A stretch of DNA of 21,501 nt from contig NZ_CP019434.1 in NCBI RefSeq assembly GCF_001975725.1, forward strand, positions 2,712,418 through 2,733,918, in the 5' to 3' direction. The notes under the pieces were generated by a model. The model was given only the letters and a program-made list of their open reading frames with translations. It was not told the origin of the DNA and did not search any database. This DNA is from Acidihalobacter ferrooxydans (GTDB taxonomy: Bacteria; Pseudomonadota; Gammaproteobacteria; DSM-5130; Acidihalobacteraceae). The translations under genes were made by a program, and so were the position numbers. Below are positions 4,049-10,455 of the stretch, piece after piece; within the stretch, counting starts at the first letter, position 1, and every line of letters starts with the position of its first letter.

Positions 4049-4183
4049 GCGCAAGCAGCCGAAGTGATCACCGGCCGTAGCATCAAGCAGACACCAGCGC
4101 TGCATGTGATCGCCCGCACAGCCGCTGTCGGCGTGTCGGAAAACAAAAAGGGGCTAACGGCAAAAAGCTCGCTAACCCCTTGA
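4049..4183 (+). pseudogene. Tyrosine recombinase remnant, part 2 (C-terminal 44 codons plus stop)
   Basis: Continues the frame of 1283..1540 exactly once the IS630 element and one TA copy are removed (...AAELWEL|AQAAEVITGRSIKQTPALHVIARTAAVGVSENKKGLTAKSSLTP*). The TGA stop at 4181-4183 lies 6 bp from the tRNA-Arg 3' fragment. Confidence 0.7.
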
Positions 4184-4189
4184 TTTTAA

Positions 4190-4234
4190 TGGCGCGCCCG
4201 GAAGGATTCGAACCTCCGACCACCTGGTTCGTAG
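4190..4234 (-). repeat. att site (distal copy): 45-bp fragment identical to the 3' portion of tRNA-Arg
   Basis: TGGCGCGCCCGGAAGGATTCGAACCTCCGACCACCTGGTTCGTAG is identical at 4190-4234 and 10379-10423. It covers the tRNA from the anticodon loop to CCA. Sequence diverges immediately after position 4234 versus 10423. Imperfect similarity continues about 14 bp on the other side (4176-4189 versus 10365-10378). Confidence 0.92.
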
Positions 4235-4352
4235 TTAGGTGAATCTAGGTTTCATGCGGGTTCAGCCCGAATCACGTAAAACGCTAACCGACTGATTTCC
4301 TTGCATTCGCGTATTCAACCCGTGTCAGCTAGAATTAGCCAAGCGCCGCAAA

Positions 4353-4384
4353 ATTGGCAACAAATTGGCAACAGATTGGCAACA
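4353..4384 (+). promoter_or_regulatory. Three 11-bp-phased copies of ATTGGCAACA upstream of int (candidate integrase arm-type sites)
   Basis: ATTGGCAACA at 4353-4362, 4364-4373 and 4375-4384. Two more copies in the same orientation sit at the other island end (10300-10309, 10311-10320). They lie between the att core and the int start codon. Confidence 0.5.
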
Positions 4385-4414
4385 GCCGCCGACCACCTGA
4401 CCCGGAACGCAAAC

Positions 4415-5692
4415 ATGGCAACTGAGAAGCGCCTTTCCCCACTGGCAATCAAGAACGCGAAAGCCACCACCCGCGACCGTTGGCTAAACGATGGTGGAGG
4501 TTTGTTTCTGCATGTCCGGCCATCCGGTAGCAAGGCGTGGCGGCTGCGATACACCATCAACGGCAAGCGGCGAGTCAAGAACCTGGGCGATGCCGGCGTA
4601 GTGAGTGCCCGCGAAGCACGCGACGCCGCGCATAAGGCACGCAAGCTGGTTGAGCAAGGGCTAGATCCGATTGAAGAGGAGGCCGCCGCACGCGAGGCCG
4701 AACGCAAAGAACTGGAACAGCGGCGCACCTTCGAGGATGCCTTGAACCGATGGGCCGAACTTGAGCTATCGAGCCGCAAGGACGGGGGCGCGGAAAGCAT
4801 ACGTGCCCTGCGTAAGGACGTGCTGCCGGTCTTGGGTGGCCGTCTGCTGGACGAAATCACACGCGGCGATGTGCTGGACGCGCTGGACGGGATCAAAGCC
4901 AGAGGCGCCGCCATTATGGCGAACCGCACCTTTGGCGACCTGCGGCAATTTTTTAACTGGTGCGCGTCACGCGAATGGGTGAGCGACAGTCCCTTGCGAG
5001 GCGTCAGAAAGGAAAACATCGGCGGACGGGAAAAAGAACGCGACCGGATACTGTCGGCGGGCGAATTGATAGAGCTACGCGACAAGCTACCGGGCGCGAA
5101 CCTTGAACCGCAAACCGTGGCGGCGGTCTGGATAATGCTTGCGACACTTTGCCGGGTGGGCGAGTTAATTCAAGCCAGATGGGAAGATATCGACCTTGAA
5201 AGCGGCACGTGGAGGATACCGGCGACCAACGCCAAGAACGCACGCGAGCATGTCGTTTTTCTGTCCGACCTTGCGATGCGGCAATTCGCCATTTTGCGCG
5301 AACGTACCGGGTGTGGCGAATGGGTAATGTTGTCGCCTTCAAAGGACGGTCACATAGGCATGAAAACCATCACGAAGCAGATACGCGACCGCATGCGCGA
5401 GGAACCCTTGAGCAACCGCACCAAGGCCGCAGGCGCATTAATCCTGACCGGCGGAGCATGGACACCGCACGACTTACGCCGAACAGGTGCAACGCTGATG
5501 GGTGAATTAGGCGTTTTGGGGGAAGTAATCGAGCGATGCTTAAACCACGTTGAGCCGAGCAAGATACGCCGCACGTATCAGCGGCACGAATACCGGGCAG
5601 AGAAGCGCGAAGCCTGGATGCGGTTGGGTGATTATTTGGATGACCTGCTGACTGGCCGTTCGCGTAAGGTTGTGAATATCCAGCGAGCATAA
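4415..5692 (+). CDS. int: Tyrosine-type site-specific integrase (P4-like, DUF4102 arm-binding N-terminus), 425 aa
   Basis: From the ATG at 4415: MATEKRLSPLAIKNAKATTRDRWLNDGGGLFLHVRPSGSKAWRLRYTINGKR (typical DUF4102 N-terminus). Catalytic boxes CRVGELIQARWEDIDL (R), TPHDLRRTGAT (HxxR) and LNHV...RRTYQRHEY (H...Y). The TTG at 4301 used by the ORF track adds 38 non-homologous residues that overlap the repeat array. Confidence 0.93.
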   Translation: MATEKRLSPLAIKNAKATTRDRWLNDGGGLFLHVRPSGSKAWRLRYTINGKRRVKNLGDAGVVSAREARDAAHKARKLVEQGLDPIEEEAAAREAERKELEQRRTFEDALNRWAELELSSRKDGGAESIRALRKDVLPVLGGRLLDEITRGDVLDALDGIKARGAAIMANRTFGDLRQFFNWCASREWVSDSPLRGVRKENIGGREKERDRILSAGELIELRDKLPGANLEPQTVAAVWIMLATLCRVGELIQARWEDIDLESGTWRIPATNAKNAREHVVFLSDLAMRQFAILRERTGCGEWVMLSPSKDGHIGMKTITKQIRDRMREEPLSNRTKAAGALILTGGAWTPHDLRRTGATLMGELGVLGEVIERCLNHVEPSKIRRTYQRHEYRAEKREAWMRLGDYLDDLLTGRSRKVVNIQRA

Positions 5693-5762: not shown

Positions 5763-6449
5763 ATGGCTAGCGAAGATTGTACACAAATTGAATTCACGCA
5801 GGAGGGGGACTATTGGCTCGCGTTCGACGACGTGGGCAATTGTGGCGAAGGCAAGACCAAGGCCGAGGCACGCAGGGATTTACGCGGACAACAAGCCCGC
5901 AACGCCGCCGAGGTCGAGACGTTCATTGCAAGGCGCGAGCATGAAGCCGAGCAATCGAAGGCCAAGGCCGAGGCCGAACGAAAGCGGCAATTCGATGCCA
6001 ACCTGGGCCGTTACCTTCGCGCGATAGGCAAGCTTGAGCGCAGGATAAATCGCCGTGTGCAAAACGGCACCGCGCAACGTGAAAGCGACCGCCGAAAAAT
6101 AATTGCTGACGAGCTGGAAGGCTTCGCGTACGACTACCCACCCATCGAGACCACACCGCAAGCGCCCGGCTGGTTGGAGCAATCAACGGTGAAAATAGTC
6201 CCACCAACATCTACGCAGGTGGCGGACTGGCGAAAGAGTGTCAAGAAAGCGGCTAATGCACACCGGCAAGCTGCCAAAAACCGGGAAAAGCAACCTGCCG
6301 CCACCCGGGCCGCGATCAAAGCCAAGCACTTGGCGACCGAGCGCAAGAAAAAGGCAGTCAGGGCGCTGGCGGCGCAAGGGAAAACAAATCGACAAATTGC
6401 TTCCGTCCTGGGACTGAGACCCCGGCAGGTGCAACGGTTAAAAAAATAA
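5763..6449 (+). CDS. Hypothetical regulator: HicB/UPF0150-like N-terminal domain, charged coiled-coil linker, C-terminal HTH, 228 aa
   Basis: GGAGG SD 8 nt upstream. N-terminus IEFTQEGDYWLAFDDVGNCGEGKTKAEARRDL resembles the HicB-fold pattern (xDGxYxAxxPxLPGCxxxGxTxEEA). The middle is K/A/E/R-rich. The C-terminus AVRALAAQGKTNRQIASVLGLRPRQVQRLKK is a resolvase/HTH_23-like helix-turn-helix. Confidence 0.7.
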   Translation: MASEDCTQIEFTQEGDYWLAFDDVGNCGEGKTKAEARRDLRGQQARNAAEVETFIARREHEAEQSKAKAEAERKRQFDANLGRYLRAIGKLERRINRRVQNGTAQRESDRRKIIADELEGFAYDYPPIETTPQAPGWLEQSTVKIVPPTSTQVADWRKSVKKAANAHRQAAKNREKQPAATRAAIKAKHLATERKKKAVRALAAQGKTNRQIASVLGLRPRQVQRLKK

Positions 6450-6543
6450 TTCAGGGGGGTGACATTTCCCCGCTCTGCATAAAAAAGCCCGCGAATCGCC
6501 GTGTGCAATGCTTGACCCGTGTTCAATCAACAGGGGTCAAACA

Positions 6544-6747
6544 ATGCAAACTACGTTCGATCAGAACCGAATTATCCGCAACAAACAAGCCGCTGCCTTC
6601 CTGGGCGTTTCGGTTGCGACATATTGGCGACTTGTTCGTGCGGGCACGTTGCCGCAGCCGGTCAAAATCACGGCTCAAATAGGCGGCCAGCCGCTGCACG
6701 TGCTTGAGGAATTTCTCGAGCGCCTGAGCGCCGGGGGTGAGGTATGA
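6544..6747 (+). CDS. alpA: AlpA-family (HTH_17, excisionase-like) transcriptional regulator, 67 aa
   Basis: MQTTFDQNRIIRNKQAAAFLGVSVATYWRLVRAGTLPQPVKI... matches the AlpA/Xis-type winged-helix pattern (xxEVAxxLGVSxxTxYRLxxxGxFPxPxKxG). Position after int is typical. Its stop overlaps the next start (ATGA). ATG at 6544 is preferred over the ORF-track start at 6508. Confidence 0.85.
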   Translation: MQTTFDQNRIIRNKQAAAFLGVSVATYWRLVRAGTLPQPVKITAQIGGQPLHVLEEFLERLSAGGEV

Positions 6748-7181
6748 CCGCCCCGATTGACCGCGTGCTGCCATTGCTCGACGGCGTTCGTCAGACCGGC
6801 CCAAACCGATGGATTGCACGCTGCCCGGCCCATGCCGACAAAAGCCCGAGTCTGAGCATCCGCGAGGCCGAGGATGGGCGCCTTCTTGTGTACTGTTTTG
6901 GTGGTTGCGAGGCCGAAGATGTGACCGCCGCGCTTGGCTTGCGAATGGCCGACCTGTTCCCCGAACGCCCGCAGTACCGGCCCGGAGACAGGGCACAGGA
7001 GCCGCGCATTTCGCTGACCGACCTCGTTGATCTGCTGGCGCATGAGGCATTAATAGCCTACGTCGCAGCAGCTGACGCGGCGCACGGAAAGCCCATATCC
7101 AACGAGGACGCCGACCGCGCAGCCCTGGCCGCGCAACGCATCCGGACGGCTGTTGATTATGCGCGAGGGTACCCACGATGA
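6744..7181 (+). CDS. Stand-alone CHC2-type (DnaG-like) zinc-finger protein, 145 aa
   Basis: ARCPAHADKSPSLSIREAEDGRLLVYCFGGCEAEDVTAALGL matches the zf-CHC2 pattern CPFHxEKTPSFxV...CFGCG. No TOPRIM or primase catalytic region follows. ATGA overlaps at both ends indicate translational coupling. Confidence 0.8.
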   Translation: MTAPIDRVLPLLDGVRQTGPNRWIARCPAHADKSPSLSIREAEDGRLLVYCFGGCEAEDVTAALGLRMADLFPERPQYRPGDRAQEPRISLTDLVDLLAHEALIAYVAAADAAHGKPISNEDADRAALAAQRIRTAVDYARGYPR

Positions 7182-8899
7182 GCATACTTGGCCAACTTGA
7201 ACGCGCTGCGCAGGCACGCGCCAAAGCCTCAAGCGTTATCGACGCATTGGCCGACCGCGACGACCCGGAAACCGATGCAGCCGAAACGATGGACGCGTTC
7301 CAGGATTACGAGCGACTAGCGCAGGACGAACGGACGACCGAACCGCCCAAGCCCGAACAGGAACAGGGTGGCGCCGCAATCGAACGCCGAGCGCAGACCG
7401 TCGAACGGACCGGAAAGCCAAGCACGCCACCCGCGCCGCTGCCAACCGGGCTGCCACCTGTCGAGAAGTTCGATCTAGCGCTGTTGCCGGAAAGTCTAAG
7501 GGAAGCATGCGGTGACGCGGCCCATCGCATGCAATGCCCGCCCGATTTCGTCGCAGTTGGGTACATGGTGGCGGCGAGTTCCGCGGTTGGGCGCATCGTG
7601 GGCATCAAGCCAAAACGCCGTGACGACTGGCTTGTGGCGCCGAACCTTTGGGGCTGCGTCGTCGGCAGACCGTCCGCCCTGAAAACCCCCGCGCTTTCCG
7701 AAGCGCTGAGGCCGCTAAAGGCGCTTGAGGCCAAAGCGCGGGAGCAGTTCGCGAAGGAACGTCGGCAATTCGAGACCGCGCTTCAGTTGCACGAATTGAA
7801 AATGTCGAGTGATCGAAAAAAAGCAGCCGCCGCCATTGCCAAGGGTAACACCGCTGAGGCCGAAAACATTTTATTAGGGTCGGGAACAGAGCCTGAAGCG
7901 CCCACATGTCGGCGATTCATCGTCAACGACACCACGGTCGAAAAGTTGGGCGAATTGCTGGCCGAAAATCCGCGCGGGCTGCTGATGTTTAGAGACGAGC
8001 TAGCCGGGTGGTTTTCTTCACTCGACCGCGAATATGCGACGACTGACCGGGCTTTCTATCTTGAAGCGTTTAATGGAAGCGGCAGCTTCGTCTATGACAG
8101 AATCGGGCGCGGGACGGTTCACATTGAAGCGGCAACGGTGTCCTTACTGGGTGGAACGCAACCGGGACGACTGTCCGCGTATCTGCGCGGCGCGATTAAG
8201 GGCGGCGCAGGCGATGACGGGCTTGCGCAACGGCTTCAACTGTTGGTGTGGCCCGATCCGGTGAAATGGGAACACATCGATGAGTGGCCGAACGCTGACG
8301 CCAAGCGCGAGGTGGTTCGCGTGTTCGAGCACTTGGTTGATCTAAACCCGGAAGAGGCGGGGGCAACGAAAGTAGAGTACGACGCCATCCCTACACTGCG
8401 GTTCGACGACGGCGGCCAGGAGGCCTTTGACGGCTGGTACAACGCTCACATGAAGCGCCTGCGCGATGAGGACTTGCCGCCCTACCTTGAGAGTCACTTA
8501 GCAAAATACGCGAGCTTGATGCCTAGCTTGGCGCTGATCGACCACCTTTCATCGTTCCGAACTGGCCCCGTTACGGAGGAATCAGCGATTCGAGCCGCCG
8601 CGTGGTGTGAATACTTGGAGAGCCATGCCGTCCGGGCCTATTCGCCGATGGTGACGGGGGCCGTCACCGCTGCTGAGCGGCTGTTGAAAAAAATCAAAGC
8701 GGGCGAACTCGGCTCTGCATTTACGGCGCGGGATGTGTACCGGAAGTGCTGGTCAATGCTGACCGACATCGAAGATGTGCGCGAGGCCATCGATCTACTG
8801 GTGGATTATGGGTGGCTTGTCGCGCAATCCATCCCAACACGTGGGCGGTCGGCGACCATCTTCGAGGTGAGCCCTGCCGCATCCAAGGGGGGTGAATGA
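7178..8899 (+). CDS. DUF3987 (YfjI-like) P-loop protein, putative island replication helicase/initiator, 573 aa
   Basis: Central region LALLPESLREACGDAAHRMQCPPDFVAVGYMVAASSAVG..., WGCVVGRPSALKTPAL (Walker-A-like), RGLLMFRDELAGWF (Walker-B-like hhhhDE) and LGGTQPGRL is characteristic of DUF3987 proteins that follow primase domains in P4-like and CP4-57-like islands. Confidence 0.87.
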   Translation: MSILGQLERAAQARAKASSVIDALADRDDPETDAAETMDAFQDYERLAQDERTTEPPKPEQEQGGAAIERRAQTVERTGKPSTPPAPLPTGLPPVEKFDLALLPESLREACGDAAHRMQCPPDFVAVGYMVAASSAVGRIVGIKPKRRDDWLVAPNLWGCVVGRPSALKTPALSEALRPLKALEAKAREQFAKERRQFETALQLHELKMSSDRKKAAAAIAKGNTAEAENILLGSGTEPEAPTCRRFIVNDTTVEKLGELLAENPRGLLMFRDELAGWFSSLDREYATTDRAFYLEAFNGSGSFVYDRIGRGTVHIEAATVSLLGGTQPGRLSAYLRGAIKGGAGDDGLAQRLQLLVWPDPVKWEHIDEWPNADAKREVVRVFEHLVDLNPEEAGATKVEYDAIPTLRFDDGGQEAFDGWYNAHMKRLRDEDLPPYLESHLAKYASLMPSLALIDHLSSFRTGPVTEESAIRAAAWCEYLESHAVRAYSPMVTGAVTAAERLLKKIKAGELGSAFTARDVYRKCWSMLTDIEDVREAIDLLVDYGWLVAQSIPTRGRSATIFEVSPAASKGGE

Positions 8900-9405
8900 T
8901 GGGTCGGTACTTGGAAAAAATTCGCGAAAACGCCCAAAACCGCACTGACAAAACTGACAAAAGCCCCCTTGCCGCAACTTCTGTCAGTTCTGTCAGCGCC
9001 CAATCCGGCCATTTTCAGAAAAAAAACGAGGCCCCTCCGATTCATGGGATGACGGCGCACGAGGAAGCGAGCATCAGGGCCTGGTTGGCGTACATCGAGG
9101 AAACCGACCCTGCAATCGTCGCCGAGGTTCTGACCCGATGCCGCCGGATGCCTGACGCACGGGCCTACTTCCTGCGGCGGGCAAAAGAGGTTCCACAAAC
9201 AGAACCCGACCACGCGGTGACCTGCGGGGCCTGCCGACACTTCCAGCGGACCGAGCACCCGCACCTGGGGCATTGCGTCAGAGGCGAGCCGGAAGCAGCC
9301 GCTGGGCTTTGGGATAGTGACCGGCGCATGTGCCGTGTGTTCGAGCCTGTGGACCGCGACGAGAACCGACATTCTGGCAGGCAGGACCACCCCAAGCCCG
9401 CGTAA
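8896..9405 (+). CDS. Hypothetical protein, 169 aa, Cys-rich C-terminal half. Its 5' part encodes palindrome A
   Basis: The ATGA overlap with the upstream gene and the preceding GGGGGG run support the start at 8896/8899. The C-terminal VTCGACRHFQRTEHPHLGHCVRGEPEAAAGLWDSDRRMCRVFEP has a CxxC...C...C arrangement. An alternative internal start (MTAHEE..., about 9049) would place the palindrome in an intergenic gap. Confidence 0.62.
   Translation: MMGRYLEKIRENAQNRTDKTDKSPLAATSVSSVSAQSGHFQKKNEAPPIHGMTAHEEASIRAWLAYIEETDPAIVAEVLTRCRRMPDARAYFLRRAKEVPQTEPDHAVTCGACRHFQRTEHPHLGHCVRGEPEAAAGLWDSDRRMCRVFEPVDRDENRHSGRQDHPKPA
8944..8996. repeat. Palindrome A: ACTGACAAAACTGACAAAAG - 13-nt gap - its imperfect inverted copy CTTCTGTCAGTTCTGTCAG (four CTGACA units)
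   Basis: Left arm 8944-8963, right arm 8977-8996 (17/20 complementary). Homologous to palindrome B over about 90 bp. Translated in frame as TDKTDKS...TSVSSVS. Confidence 0.85.
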
Positions 9406-9469
9406 CGACGCAGAGCGGATGACGCATTACGCCAAACCGGCACGAACTTACCATTACGGAGACTTACCA

Positions 9470-9883
9470 ATGGCAAAAAAAATCGTTACCCTTCAAACAC
9501 ATATGCGCCGCAAGGAGGCCGTCAAGCTGCGGCTGGCGGGCCTGAGCTACCGGCAGATTGGTGATCGGCTCGGCATTAGTCACGTTGCCGCGCTGAACCA
9601 TGTTCGCGCCGTGCTGGATGAACTTCGGTCTGAGACCGCCGAGACCGCCGAGCAGATTCGCCGAATCGAGTTAGAGCGCTTGGACTGCGCGACCGCGTTA
9701 GCCATGCGCATGATCGACCGGGGCGAGCTGGCCGGTATTGATCGGCTCATCAAGATTCAGGAACGGCGTGCCCGGTTGCTTGGATTGGATGCTGCCGAGC
9801 GGGTGGACGTTTCGACGCAGGAGATTCCGACCGTCATCATTGCCGAGCCGGTGAGTCCGCGACTGCCTGATACGAAGCACTGA
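9470..9883 (+). CDS. Small HTH DNA-binding protein, small-terminase-like, 137 aa
   Basis: GGAG SD 9 nt upstream of the ATG at 9470. RRKEAVKLRLAGLSYRQIGDRLGISHVAALNHVRAVLDE is a sigma70-region-4/LuxR-type HTH. The following helical segment IELERLD...IDRLIKIQERRARLLGLDA recalls phage HTH proteins often annotated as small terminase subunits. The TerS assignment is from memory and untested. Confidence 0.72.
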   Translation: MAKKIVTLQTHMRRKEAVKLRLAGLSYRQIGDRLGISHVAALNHVRAVLDELRSETAETAEQIRRIELERLDCATALAMRMIDRGELAGIDRLIKIQERRARLLGLDAAERVDVSTQEIPTVIIAEPVSPRLPDTKH

Positions 9884-9948
9884 TTGCTTGAATCTGCACC
9901 GGTGCCGAGTAGCGGATAATCACCGAGGAGAATTTTCCGGGAATGGCC

Positions 9949-10020
9949 GGAATGGGAACTGACAGAACTGACAAAAGTTCGATCCGGGTAACTTCTGTCA
10001 GTTCTGTCAGTTCCCATTCC
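9949..10020. repeat. Palindrome B: 30-bp inverted repeat (29/30) with a 12-bp spacer, built on four CTGACA units
   Basis: GGAATGGGAACTGACAGAACTGACAAAAGT (9949-9978), spacer TCGATCCGGGTA, then ACTTCTGTCAGTTCTGTCAGTTCCCATTCC (9991-10020). Intergenic, 66 bp after the stop of 9470..9883. Confidence 0.9.
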
Positions 10021-10299
10021 AAGCATTTCCGTAAAACACGCCCCGGTAGCCATCCGGCACCATTCGCCGCCTAGACGCATTTTGCGTACACCGTACAAGG
10101 CGAATGCCCGCCAGCCGTACCCTAGCCTACCTTTCGCGTGATAGGCCCACAGACACCCCGCTACGGCGGTCTGGCGGCCTGTTTGTCGGCAACCGACAAG
10201 GATTGCTTGATAGCCATTCAGCGCCGCGCCTGACCGGGTGGGCGGACAGCGACCAAGGGCTTGCACGGGCTTAAACGAAACAGCCCTTGGTGGCGTTCA

Positions 10300-10320
10300 A
10301 TTGGCAACAAATTGGCAACA
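10300..10320 (+). promoter_or_regulatory. Two 11-bp-phased copies of ATTGGCAACA near the tRNA-proximal att site (candidate arm-type sites)
   Basis: ATTGGCAACA at 10300-10309 and 10311-10320, 58 bp from the att core at 10379. Same motif and orientation as the triplet at 4353-4384. Confidence 0.5.
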
Positions 10321-10378
10321 AATCCGCGTTTTCGTCTAGTGGGCGATGCCTCGCAATGCTCTAAGTCCTTGTTTTAAT

Positions 10379-10455
10379 TGGCGCGCCCGGAAGGATTCGA
10401 ACCTCCGACCACCTGGTTCGTAGCCAGGTACTCTATCCAACTGAGCTACGGGCGC
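10379..10455 (-). tRNA. tRNA-Arg (anticodon ACG), 77 nt, intact, CCA encoded
   Basis: Reverse complement GCGCCCGTAGCTCAGTTGGATAGAGTACCTGGCTACGAACCAGGTGGTCGGAGGTTCGAATCCTTCCGGGCGCGCCA folds as a cloverleaf. Anticodon stem CCTGG/CCAGG, loop CTACGAA. Confidence 0.95.

Follow-up and report, generated by a model that had tools for sequence, protein, structure and literature searches.

CTGACA iteron palindromes as probable replication origin units of a DUF3987 helicase-encoding island in Acidihalobacter ferrooxydans

Introduction

Among described replication systems, the origins of Staphylococcus aureus pathogenicity islands (SaPIs) and phage-inducible chromosomal islands (PICIs) lie immediately 3' of the rep gene, carry at least two opposed iterons per side and are read by the C-terminal winged-helix domain of a self-loading helicase (PMC9371898); Gram-negative PICIs share this organisation, and a pri-rep-ori segment replicates autonomously, as in a plasmid maintenance assay for EcCICFT073 (PMC6092414). 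The present study concerns a 6.2-kb island of Acidihalobacter ferrooxydans, integrated at a tRNA-Arg gene and bounded by att repeats, within a 21.5-kb stretch of DNA that we refer to, at its full length, as the window. The island contains two palindromes, A and B, built from inverted CTGACA repeats, the first of which begins just past the gene for a DUF3987-family helicase. We propose that each palindrome is probably one unit of the island's replication origin, with unit A ancestral and unit B lineage-specific. A preliminary description of the window, made from the letters of the DNA, had mentioned the SaPI/PICI comparison in passing; in our analysis it emerged as the closest known system.

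Further points of comparison come from more distant replicons. Satellite P4 uses two sites, ori and crr, both bound by the alpha primase-helicase, a protein with a C-terminal winged-helix DNA-binding domain. The iteron origin of phage lambda lies inside gene O, where the DNA site dictates a tolerant linker peptide. In the SV40/polyomavirus core origin (site II), an initiator-helicase binds a central palindrome in which four short repeats form two inverted pairs, and an easily melted A/T-rich sequence is situated outside it. As regards elements with DUF3987 genes, the PICMIs (minimalist chromosomal islands inducible by phage) of Vibrionaceae are satellites of ~6 kb with an integrase, AlpA, a DUF3987-type replication gene and few others—defined by a fis gene and by integration next to fis (PMC10803314). 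In experiments, one DUF3987 protein was shown to act as an oligomeric helicase with 5'-3' polarity and to bind its primase-polymerase partner (PMC11724360). In the searchable literature, we came across no account of the CTGACA motif or of an origin in DUF3987 elements.

The A. ferrooxydans locus resembles the SaPI/PICI arrangement in several respects: it is an integrase- and AlpA-bearing chromosomal island with a primase gene upstream of the helicase gene, at least two opposed iterons per side (++-- in both units), and a putative origin immediately 3' of the initiator-helicase gene—46 nt past its stop codon in the window, with the same geometry in 62 of 75 listed helicase loci. The helicase may also correspond to the SaPI/PICI initiators in its C-terminus, for which a winged helix is predicted. 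It differs in that its helicase belongs to the DUF3987 family, one member of which works 5'-3' (PMC11724360), whereas SaPI Reps are AAA+ proteins that work 3'-5'; in that the putative origin is translated as part of the next gene; and in the size of the island (6.2 kb), in which no capsid-remodelling genes were recognised. With PICMIs, it shares a length of ~6 kb and the combination of int, AlpA and DUF3987; unlike them, it sits in tRNA-Arg of Acidihalobacter, and no Fis family was reported for any protein scanned.

Results and discussion

Two palindromes with conserved arms and unrelated spacers

The features on which the argument rests are the following.

8944-8963, plus strand: left block of copy A, ACTGACAAAACTGACAAAAG; left arm of unit A, with two CTGACA(A)AA iterons at 9-bp spacing
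8964-8975, no strand assigned: central segment of copy A, CCCCCTTGCCGC; GC-rich, unrelated to the segment of unit B, with the inner TGACA cores 22 nt apart (21-23 nt class)
8976-8996, minus strand: right block of copy A, AACTTCTGTCAGTTCTGTCAG; right arm of unit A, with two iterons in inverted orientation
9958-9977, plus strand: left block of copy B, ACTGACAGAACTGACAAAAG; left arm of unit B, with two iterons
9978-9989: central segment of copy B, TTCGATCCGGGT; spacer between the arms of unit B
9990-10010, minus strand: right block of copy B, AACTTCTGTCAGTTCTGTCAG; right arm of unit B, with two iterons
8913..9022, no strand assigned: proposed origin unit A; 2+2 inverted 9-bp iterons with conserved flanks, within the 5' end of ORF169, a 110-nt repeat common to unit B
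9913..10056, no strand assigned: proposed origin unit B; a complete, more symmetric copy, intergenic, 30 nt past the HTH137 stop codon and ~300 nt before attR, with flanks that fit the family-wide pattern
7178..8899, plus strand: DUF3987-family helicase, the proposed initiator; Pfam DUF3987 E = 5e-88, PHROG DNA helicase
8896..9405, plus strand: ORF169, a Cys/His-rich conserved accessory protein; its start overlaps the helicase stop (ATGA)
9470..9883, plus strand: HTH137, a 137-aa helix-turn-helix (HTH) protein between both proposed origin units; HTH_23 E = 6.8e-5, phrog_645 E = 1.2e-23

Re-reading the sequence showed that the two palindromes had been described accurately: their arms are near-identical and their spacers unrelated, and the reported identities of 19/20 in the left block, 21/21 in the right block and 3/12 in the spacer were all reproduced. 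The eight CTGACA units of the window likewise all fall within A (8944-8996) and B (9958-10010), which are 1014 bp apart and have the eight iterons in common, each unit displaying the ++-- orientation with 9-bp spacing. Exact matches to ACTGACA in the window number 7 versus 1.56 expected, all inside A or B (2 of 100 shuffles reached 7), while the double-iteron 16-mer ACTGACARAACTGACA, with up to 3 mismatches, has 5 matches versus 0.12 expected, a count that 0 of 100 shuffles reached. The similarity between A and B spans 110 nt at 70% identity (8913-9022 versus 9927-10036). In one respect the preliminary description needs correction—copy B is the core of a far longer palindrome, with arms at 9913-9979 and 9990-10056 (67 nt) that are 79% complementary. 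Folding as single-stranded DNA gives -45.5 kcal/mol for B (z = -9.1) versus -22.2 kcal/mol for A (z = -2.5); moreover, flank symmetry is 17/22 in B versus 10/22 in A, the flanks of B are nearer the family consensus, and its iterons are perfect. The coding context also agrees with the earlier account: copy A lies inside the open reading frame (ORF) 8896-9405, translated as TDKTDKSPLAATSVSSVS, and its core begins 46 nt past the DUF3987 stop codon, while copy B gives rise to a 43-codon ORF at 9943-10074 (MAGMGTDRTDKSSIRVTSVSSVS...).

A G variant of the double iteron, CTGACAGAACTGACAG (9958-9973 and 9996-10011), is one base off the LexA-box form CTGT-N8-ACAG. A LexA box was discounted: the corresponding position is mostly A family-wide, the majority half-site is ACAA, and the likeness is probably a coincidence.

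The motif tracks DUF3987 helicase genes

A DNA-only pattern, CTGACANAACTGACA-N8-38-TGTCAGTTNTGTCAG, was scanned over public viral and metagenome collections and recovered 4 viral and at least 120 metagenome loci, i.e., at least 124, from soil, marine and host-associated metagenomes; all locus counts given in this text are among the matches listed. Profile searches identified a DUF3987 helicase in 75 of the 124, and in 62 of these 75 the palindrome falls within -60..+150 nt of the helicase 3' end. Where at least 2 kb is available on both sides of the site, DUF3987 is encoded in 21 of 25 loci. The assignment of the site to the replication machinery of the island is thus upheld, as the site tracks DUF3987 helicase genes in loci found by DNA pattern alone. 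The same scan revealed that the arm sequence is invariant while the spacer is free and the reading frame varies; this invariance of the arms extends across helicases that are only 25-60% identical.

Relatives of ORF169 and HTH137 were found in none of the 124 motif loci, which bears on an alternative explanation, namely that the palindromes, and B especially, are pac or cos sites read by a small-terminase-like HTH137 or by the terminase of a helper phage. Copy B does lie 30 nt downstream of HTH137, whose N-terminal HTH and helical region may resemble those of small terminases, and the island is satellite-sized. However, the motif tracks helicase 3' ends instead of HTH137 homologues (0/124), searches of Pfam, NCBIfam and PHROGs assigned HTH137 to no terminase family, and a comparison of unit B with 50,697 phage records returned a sole match of 23 nt, which is chance-level. 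A packaging site was rejected on these grounds—HTH137 never occurs with the motif in the listed loci and none of the phage records matches unit B beyond chance level—and the terS link suggested earlier is likewise unsupported; we consider a role in packaging extremely improbable.

An independent sample was provided by five plasmids drawn from helicase-protein matches and unselected for any repeat, and inverted iterons follow the DUF3987/YfjI gene in 4 of the 5. The Acinetobacter plasmid pYUSHP14-1 carries a CTGACA palindrome, CTGACAAAACTGACAGAAC-ATA-GTTTTGTCAGTTTTGTCAG, a few bases past the YfjI stop; in Bartonella pBT01, GGTTTTGAA iterons flank an AT-rich stretch; a Rhodovastum plasmid has a perfect 24-nt inverted repeat with TGTCGACATTGTCGC that begins at the stop codon; and Skermanella pTT6-5 contains three TGTCAG/CTGACA inverted pairs. 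The Sulfitobacter plasmid has a plain 17-nt inverted repeat only. A short-query blastn search of unit B against E. coli genomes and plasmids gave no match, the query being too short for databases of such sizes; the Acinetobacter motif plasmid was reached through the protein search only.

In a few loci, the motif also occurs beside replicative proteins of other families: AAA_25 helicases, with the site inside their own 3' coding end, a PrimPol-PriCT_2-DUF5906 protein and a DnaB_N/PC4 protein, in none of which a homologue of the DUF3987 C-terminal domain was detected. Palindromes of this type, beside or inside the 3' end of such proteins, are located at L081 277-320, L098 1022-1066, L120 568-607 and L044 2990-3041 (L numbers denote individual loci). 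In addition, an AT-rich viral contig of 37.7 kb bears a palindrome and an extra iteron (L043 185-236) beside the 3' end of a 1410-aa ORF with no Pfam family. A more speculative explanation would be that the CTGACA double-inverted iteron unit is a portable origin cassette used by unrelated replicative ATPases (DUF3987, AAA_25, PrimPol-DUF5906), with the two cassettes of the island representing a snapshot of exchange that may act as a looped bipartite origin. We regard this proposal as unlikely; if true, it would imply either an unrecognised shared reader or the exchange of origins between replication modules via palindrome recombination.

Spacers are phased with the DNA helix and flanks are AT-enriched

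The repeat unit is, family-wide, the 9-mer TTYTGTCAG. Across 128 spacers between inner iterons, lengths of 10-11 nt (n = 52), 21-23 nt (n = 48) and 32-34 nt (n = 13) predominate, with free sequence; the spacers of unit A and unit B are both 22 nt. Spacer length is therefore quantised in steps of ~11 bp, which argues for binding to one face of the duplex, since a hairpin loop would not be phased in this manner. AT content is raised in the flanks at +10..+35 (0.49 versus 0.43 for the loci), with a peak of (A/G)TTT(C/T) at +14, and outside each arm there are short A/T tracts at a distance of ~14-30 nt. This family-wide flank pattern accounts for the weaker resemblance between A and B that had been noticed earlier rightward of the arms. 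A four-repeat central palindrome with A/T-rich sequence outside the arms is reminiscent of the SV40 origin, but the analogy is one of layout only, as the proteins and hosts are unrelated.

Additional tandem iteron pairs were found in 40 of 125 loci (the window included), typically at a downstream distance of 96-184 nt, with an AT-enriched interval in between, or else within the helicase gene, in a variable linker. The latter kind includes loci L077, L115, L090, L140 and L156, in which the pair precedes the palindrome by ~420-463 nt within the DUF3987 coding sequence and is translated as SVSFVS or SVSSVS, a second, intragenic site that several CTGACA-type loci have in common. Locus-specific palindromy of the flanks is weak (9.0/22 positions for own flanks versus 6.5 for cross-pairings), and selection for a cruciform, which such palindromy might have indicated, was set aside as the signal is weak.

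These observations also bear on whether the palindrome is a transcriptional or translational control element—an operator of an island regulator, or a hairpin terminator or attenuator between the helicase and the downstream genes. The location at a gene junction with an ATGA overlap and the capacity to form a hairpin would fit such a function. However, a terminator scan reported no site at A or B; the arm sequence, beyond mere pairing, is invariant across the divergent helicases; the loop length is quantised in helical turns; the motif also occurs in intergenic DNA, inside helicase 3' ends and on plasmids; and no Rfam family scored over threshold, only sub-threshold microRNA hairpin models on both strands. 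An RNA element or terminator was rejected in view of the Rfam and terminator results, and a control element in general appears very unlikely.

The DNA, and not the encoded peptide, is conserved in the ORF169 family

More than 100 homologues of ORF169 were found, and their conserved part is the C-terminal ~110 aa (CGxCxHFxRxxHPHLGHC...GEPEAIAGLWDTDRRYC), for which there is no Pfam, NCBIfam or PHROG match. Genes of this family always directly follow the replication gene of their island, and in 23 of 26 loci the gene start overlaps the stop of the preceding gene as ATGA. The first ~45 residues are kept as a pattern only and vary with iteron type: most members read TATPATPAT...VAPVATVAVA, the window protein TDKTDK...SVSSVS and others THNSQNTQ...CADIADSA. 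The DNA that encodes these N-termini is arrayed as inverted iterons, 2-4 on each arm and with a 9-bp period, at 36-125 nt into the gene (27 of 28 analysable loci). The iteron core differs by subfamily—CTGACA, GCGACA, GCTAC(A) or CGCA(C/G)AA—with a constant inverted layout and position, and islands with other DUF3987 clades bear other 9-bp iterons (GCGACA, GCTACA, CGCAGAA). Scans of three upstream proteins from subfamilies with a palindrome assigned each of them to DUF3987, either alone or in a fusion with Toprim or PriCT_2; where the upstream gene of a family member matches no Pfam family or was not resolvable, no comparable palindrome was seen. In a Thiohalocapsa locus (L005, 7866-8369), unrelated sequence stands in place of the left iteron arm and of the ORF169 homologue's 5' end, the right arm (TGTCGC repeats) being kept, and this is apparently a broken origin.

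Across the CTGACA loci, translation of the motif yields TDKTDK..SVSFVS in some cases and LTKLTE..FVSSVS or CQFCQ in others, and elsewhere the motif lies between genes, 9 nt past a stop; in locus L045, a short ORF that enters the motif ends straight after it. The different frames and intergenic placements mean that the peptide is not what is conserved and that selection acts on the DNA, in agreement with the preliminary description; a conserved peptide repeat is ruled out by translation of the motif in two frames or by its non-coding position. The variable N-terminal ~45 codons of ORF169 are dictated by the putative origin DNA, unit A doubling as codons 16-34 of the gene, and the locus is a clean natural example of a DNA-level constraint that overrides protein coding. 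As in lambda, an iteron origin would here be embedded and translated in a gene of the replication module; unlike lambda, it would lie in the gene downstream of the initiator, and the initiator itself would be the helicase. The difference is smaller in loci L081, L098 and L155, in which the palindrome does overlap the helicase's own 3' end.

The helicase C-terminus as a candidate iteron reader

The protein segment that might recognise the iterons is encoded as follows.

8492..8896, plus strand: C-terminal 135 residues of the helicase, the candidate iteron reader; AlphaFold2 model with a predicted local distance difference test score (pLDDT) of 89.5 and a helix-helix-wing topology

This C-terminus is confidently modelled as a winged helix. 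The best Foldseek matches in the PDB were MarR, PadR, ROK and GntR winged-helix regulators (probability ~0.99, E = 0.01-0.1), while neither the helicase sequence nor its C-terminal profile gave a significant match when searched against the PDB. The C-terminal domains cluster by iteron type: for helicases of the GCGACA group compared with those of the GCTACA group, identity is 65-88% in the core and 41-56% in the C-terminus, and the N-terminus diverges too. Among CTGACA helicases, residues R518, R522, W525 and L528 are invariant. Co-variation with iteron type does not single out the winged helix, which is a candidate for the iteron reader.

A model for the origin unit and the evidence that opposes it

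In the proposed model, an origin unit would comprise a pair of 9-bp iterons (TTYTGTCAG), then a GC-rich spacer, then a second pair in the opposite orientation, and the DUF3987 helicase encoded just upstream would act as a self-loading initiator. Its C-terminal winged-helix domain would read the iterons, with one helicase assembly per arm and both assemblies on the same duplex face; the AT-enriched flanks would then be opened, and the zf-CHC2 primase-like protein would prime synthesis. Unit A would be the ancestral, family-wide origin immediately 3' of the helicase gene, and unit B a second complete, more symmetric, lineage-specific unit—either an auxiliary or duplicate origin, or a recent recombination product of two elements sharing an origin type. 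We consider this model likely as a whole, and the site is most likely an undescribed example of the SaPI/PICI kind of origin, with some variant features, that extends to a large class of DUF3987 replicons.

Several observations weigh against the model. The centre of the palindrome is GC-rich, with a spacer AT content of 0.25 versus 0.43 for the loci (p about 1e-18); SaPI/PICI origins have an AT-rich centre, whereas here the spacer is short and rich in GC, its length corresponding to 1, 2 or 3 helical turns family-wide, and AT enrichment lies outside the arms. Moreover, 49 of the 124 loci show no DUF3987; most of these are short contigs that end close to the site, but they include 4 of the 25 long loci. 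Regarding the reader, conservation among CTGACA-type helicases is no higher in the winged-helix region than in the core, and the recognition helix is not specially conserved; loci L114 and L155 use CTGACA, yet their C-terminal domain resembles (by eye) that of the CGCAGAA group; and the motif stands beside the AAA_25 and PrimPol-DUF5906 proteins that have no detectable homologous C-terminus. Finally, unit B has no counterpart within 1.4 kb downstream in L169, the island's nearest true relative.

Unit B as a possible second origin, obligate partner or scar

Locus L169 encodes Toprim_3, a CTGACA-type DUF3987 helicase and a homologue of ORF169, in which a palindrome with the same flank is embedded; a DUF5681 protein gene comes directly after this homologue, in the place that HTH137 occupies in the window. 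The preliminary description had proposed that A and B form a P4-like ori/crr pair, i.e., an obligate bipartite origin with both sites needed in cis and bridged by DNA looping through the primase-helicase. The eight iterons have indeed stayed intact over both copies while the spacer (3/12) and the flanks (~60-70%) diverged; in two other loci, L075 and L161, a pair of full palindromes is present at a distance of 370-490 nt, again with arms that are identical and spacers that have diverged (the first of the L161 pair is intergenic, the second inside the next ORF); and the accessory iteron pairs in 40 of 125 loci could be taken to point in the same direction. As in P4, there are two separated clusters of one short repeat in a small element, and a winged-helix C-terminus in the helicase is a predicted fold here. 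However, L169, with the same helicase type and an ORF169 homologue, has copy A without copy B; no second iteron cluster was found in any ORF169-family locus; and second full palindromes exist in 2 of the 124 other loci, or 3 of 125 with the window included. Unlike in P4, the second site is thus not conserved in relatives, and the repeats are compact inverted pairs. Additionally, DUF3987 is the only Pfam family detected in the helicase, which has no PDB sequence match, and the P4 alpha domain is not in the Foldseek top 50. These results do not sustain the obligate pair; a crr-type partner role for B is unlikely, and we judge a bipartite origin that needs both sites to be decidedly improbable. 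In our assessment, unit B is an additional origin (auxiliary or duplicate) or was produced by recombination, and is not a conserved crr-type second element.

Another explanation takes the recombination further, with unit B as a passive scar of recombination or cointegration between two CTGACA-origin elements, by which the ORF169 C-terminus and the HTH137 segment were brought in between, one active copy being sufficient. Sequence comparisons give the island a chimeric appearance: its helicase falls among CTGACA-type helicases whose loci encode no ORF169 (0/124), and the C-terminus of ORF169 is 57-64% identical to homologues of GCGACA/GCTACA-type islands versus 37% to the homologue in the CTGACA-type L169. 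Furthermore, A and B, as 110-nt direct repeats, bracket exactly the ORF169 C-terminus and HTH137 segment. On the other hand, the iterons of B are perfect and its flanks nearer the consensus than those of A (17/22 versus 10/22), indicating recent acquisition or continued selection, and such an origin is compatible with activity. A purely passive scar is therefore a possible, if somewhat doubtful, account, and in our preferred model unit B may act as an additional origin.

Other features of the island and its surroundings

The gene order of the island is int, HTH, AlpA, zf-CHC2, DUF3987 helicase, ORF169 and HTH137, and the features that complete it are listed below.

4172..4240, no strand assigned: attL, a 69-nt copy of the tRNA-Arg 3' part; direct repeat of 10361-10429, 90% identical
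10361..10429, no strand assigned: attR, overlapping the 3' end of tRNA-Arg(acg)
10379-10455, minus strand: tRNA-Arg(acg), the 3' part of which is repeated at attL
4301..5692, plus strand: tyrosine integrase with Arm-DNA-bind_3, Phage_int_M and Phage_integrase domains
6744..7181, plus strand: CHC2 zinc-ribbon primase-like protein; Pfam Zn_ribbon_DnaG E = 5e-5, just under the curated cut-off, PHROG DNA primase E = 1.9e-14

NCBIfam provided no name for ORF169, HTH137 or the helicase. A 99% identical protein is annotated from Acidihalobacter ferrooxydans. The family matched by HTH137, phrog_645, is annotated 'Rnase E', a label that hardly seems to suit a small HTH protein. The right-hand neighbours of the island are tRNA-Ser and the truB gene, followed by large minus-strand ORFs.

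Several other repeats were noted. An 11-bp repeat, AATTGGCAACA, is present in three tandem copies just inside attL (4352-4387), overlapping the listed start of the integrase ORF, and in two just inside attR (10299-10320). These are probably arm-type integrase binding sites and, if so, the true integrase start would be downstream of 4387. An inverted repeat at 10249-10294, with 13-nt arms GCGACCAAGGGCT / AGCCCTTGGTGGC and a 20-nt loop, lies directly before the right-hand arm-type repeats. Elsewhere, an exact 15-nt direct repeat, AATCGCCGTGTGCAA, occurs at 6048-6062 and 6494-6508, 446 nt apart—inside the 228-aa HTH gene and just upstream of alpA, respectively—and may constitute an operator pair.

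Implications for DUF3987 replicons

DUF3987/YfjI helicases mark the replication of very many small islands, satellites (e.g., PICMIs) and cryptic plasmids. An origin signature consisting of inverted 9-bp iterons just 3' of the gene, whole-helical-turn spacers and A/T tracts outside the arms would permit the annotation of such replicons, and the iteron type would let incompatibility or specificity groups be predicted. The same signature would explain why brief peptides like TDKTDK..SVSFVS or TATPAT..VATVAVA recur at the starts of otherwise unrelated hypothetical proteins.

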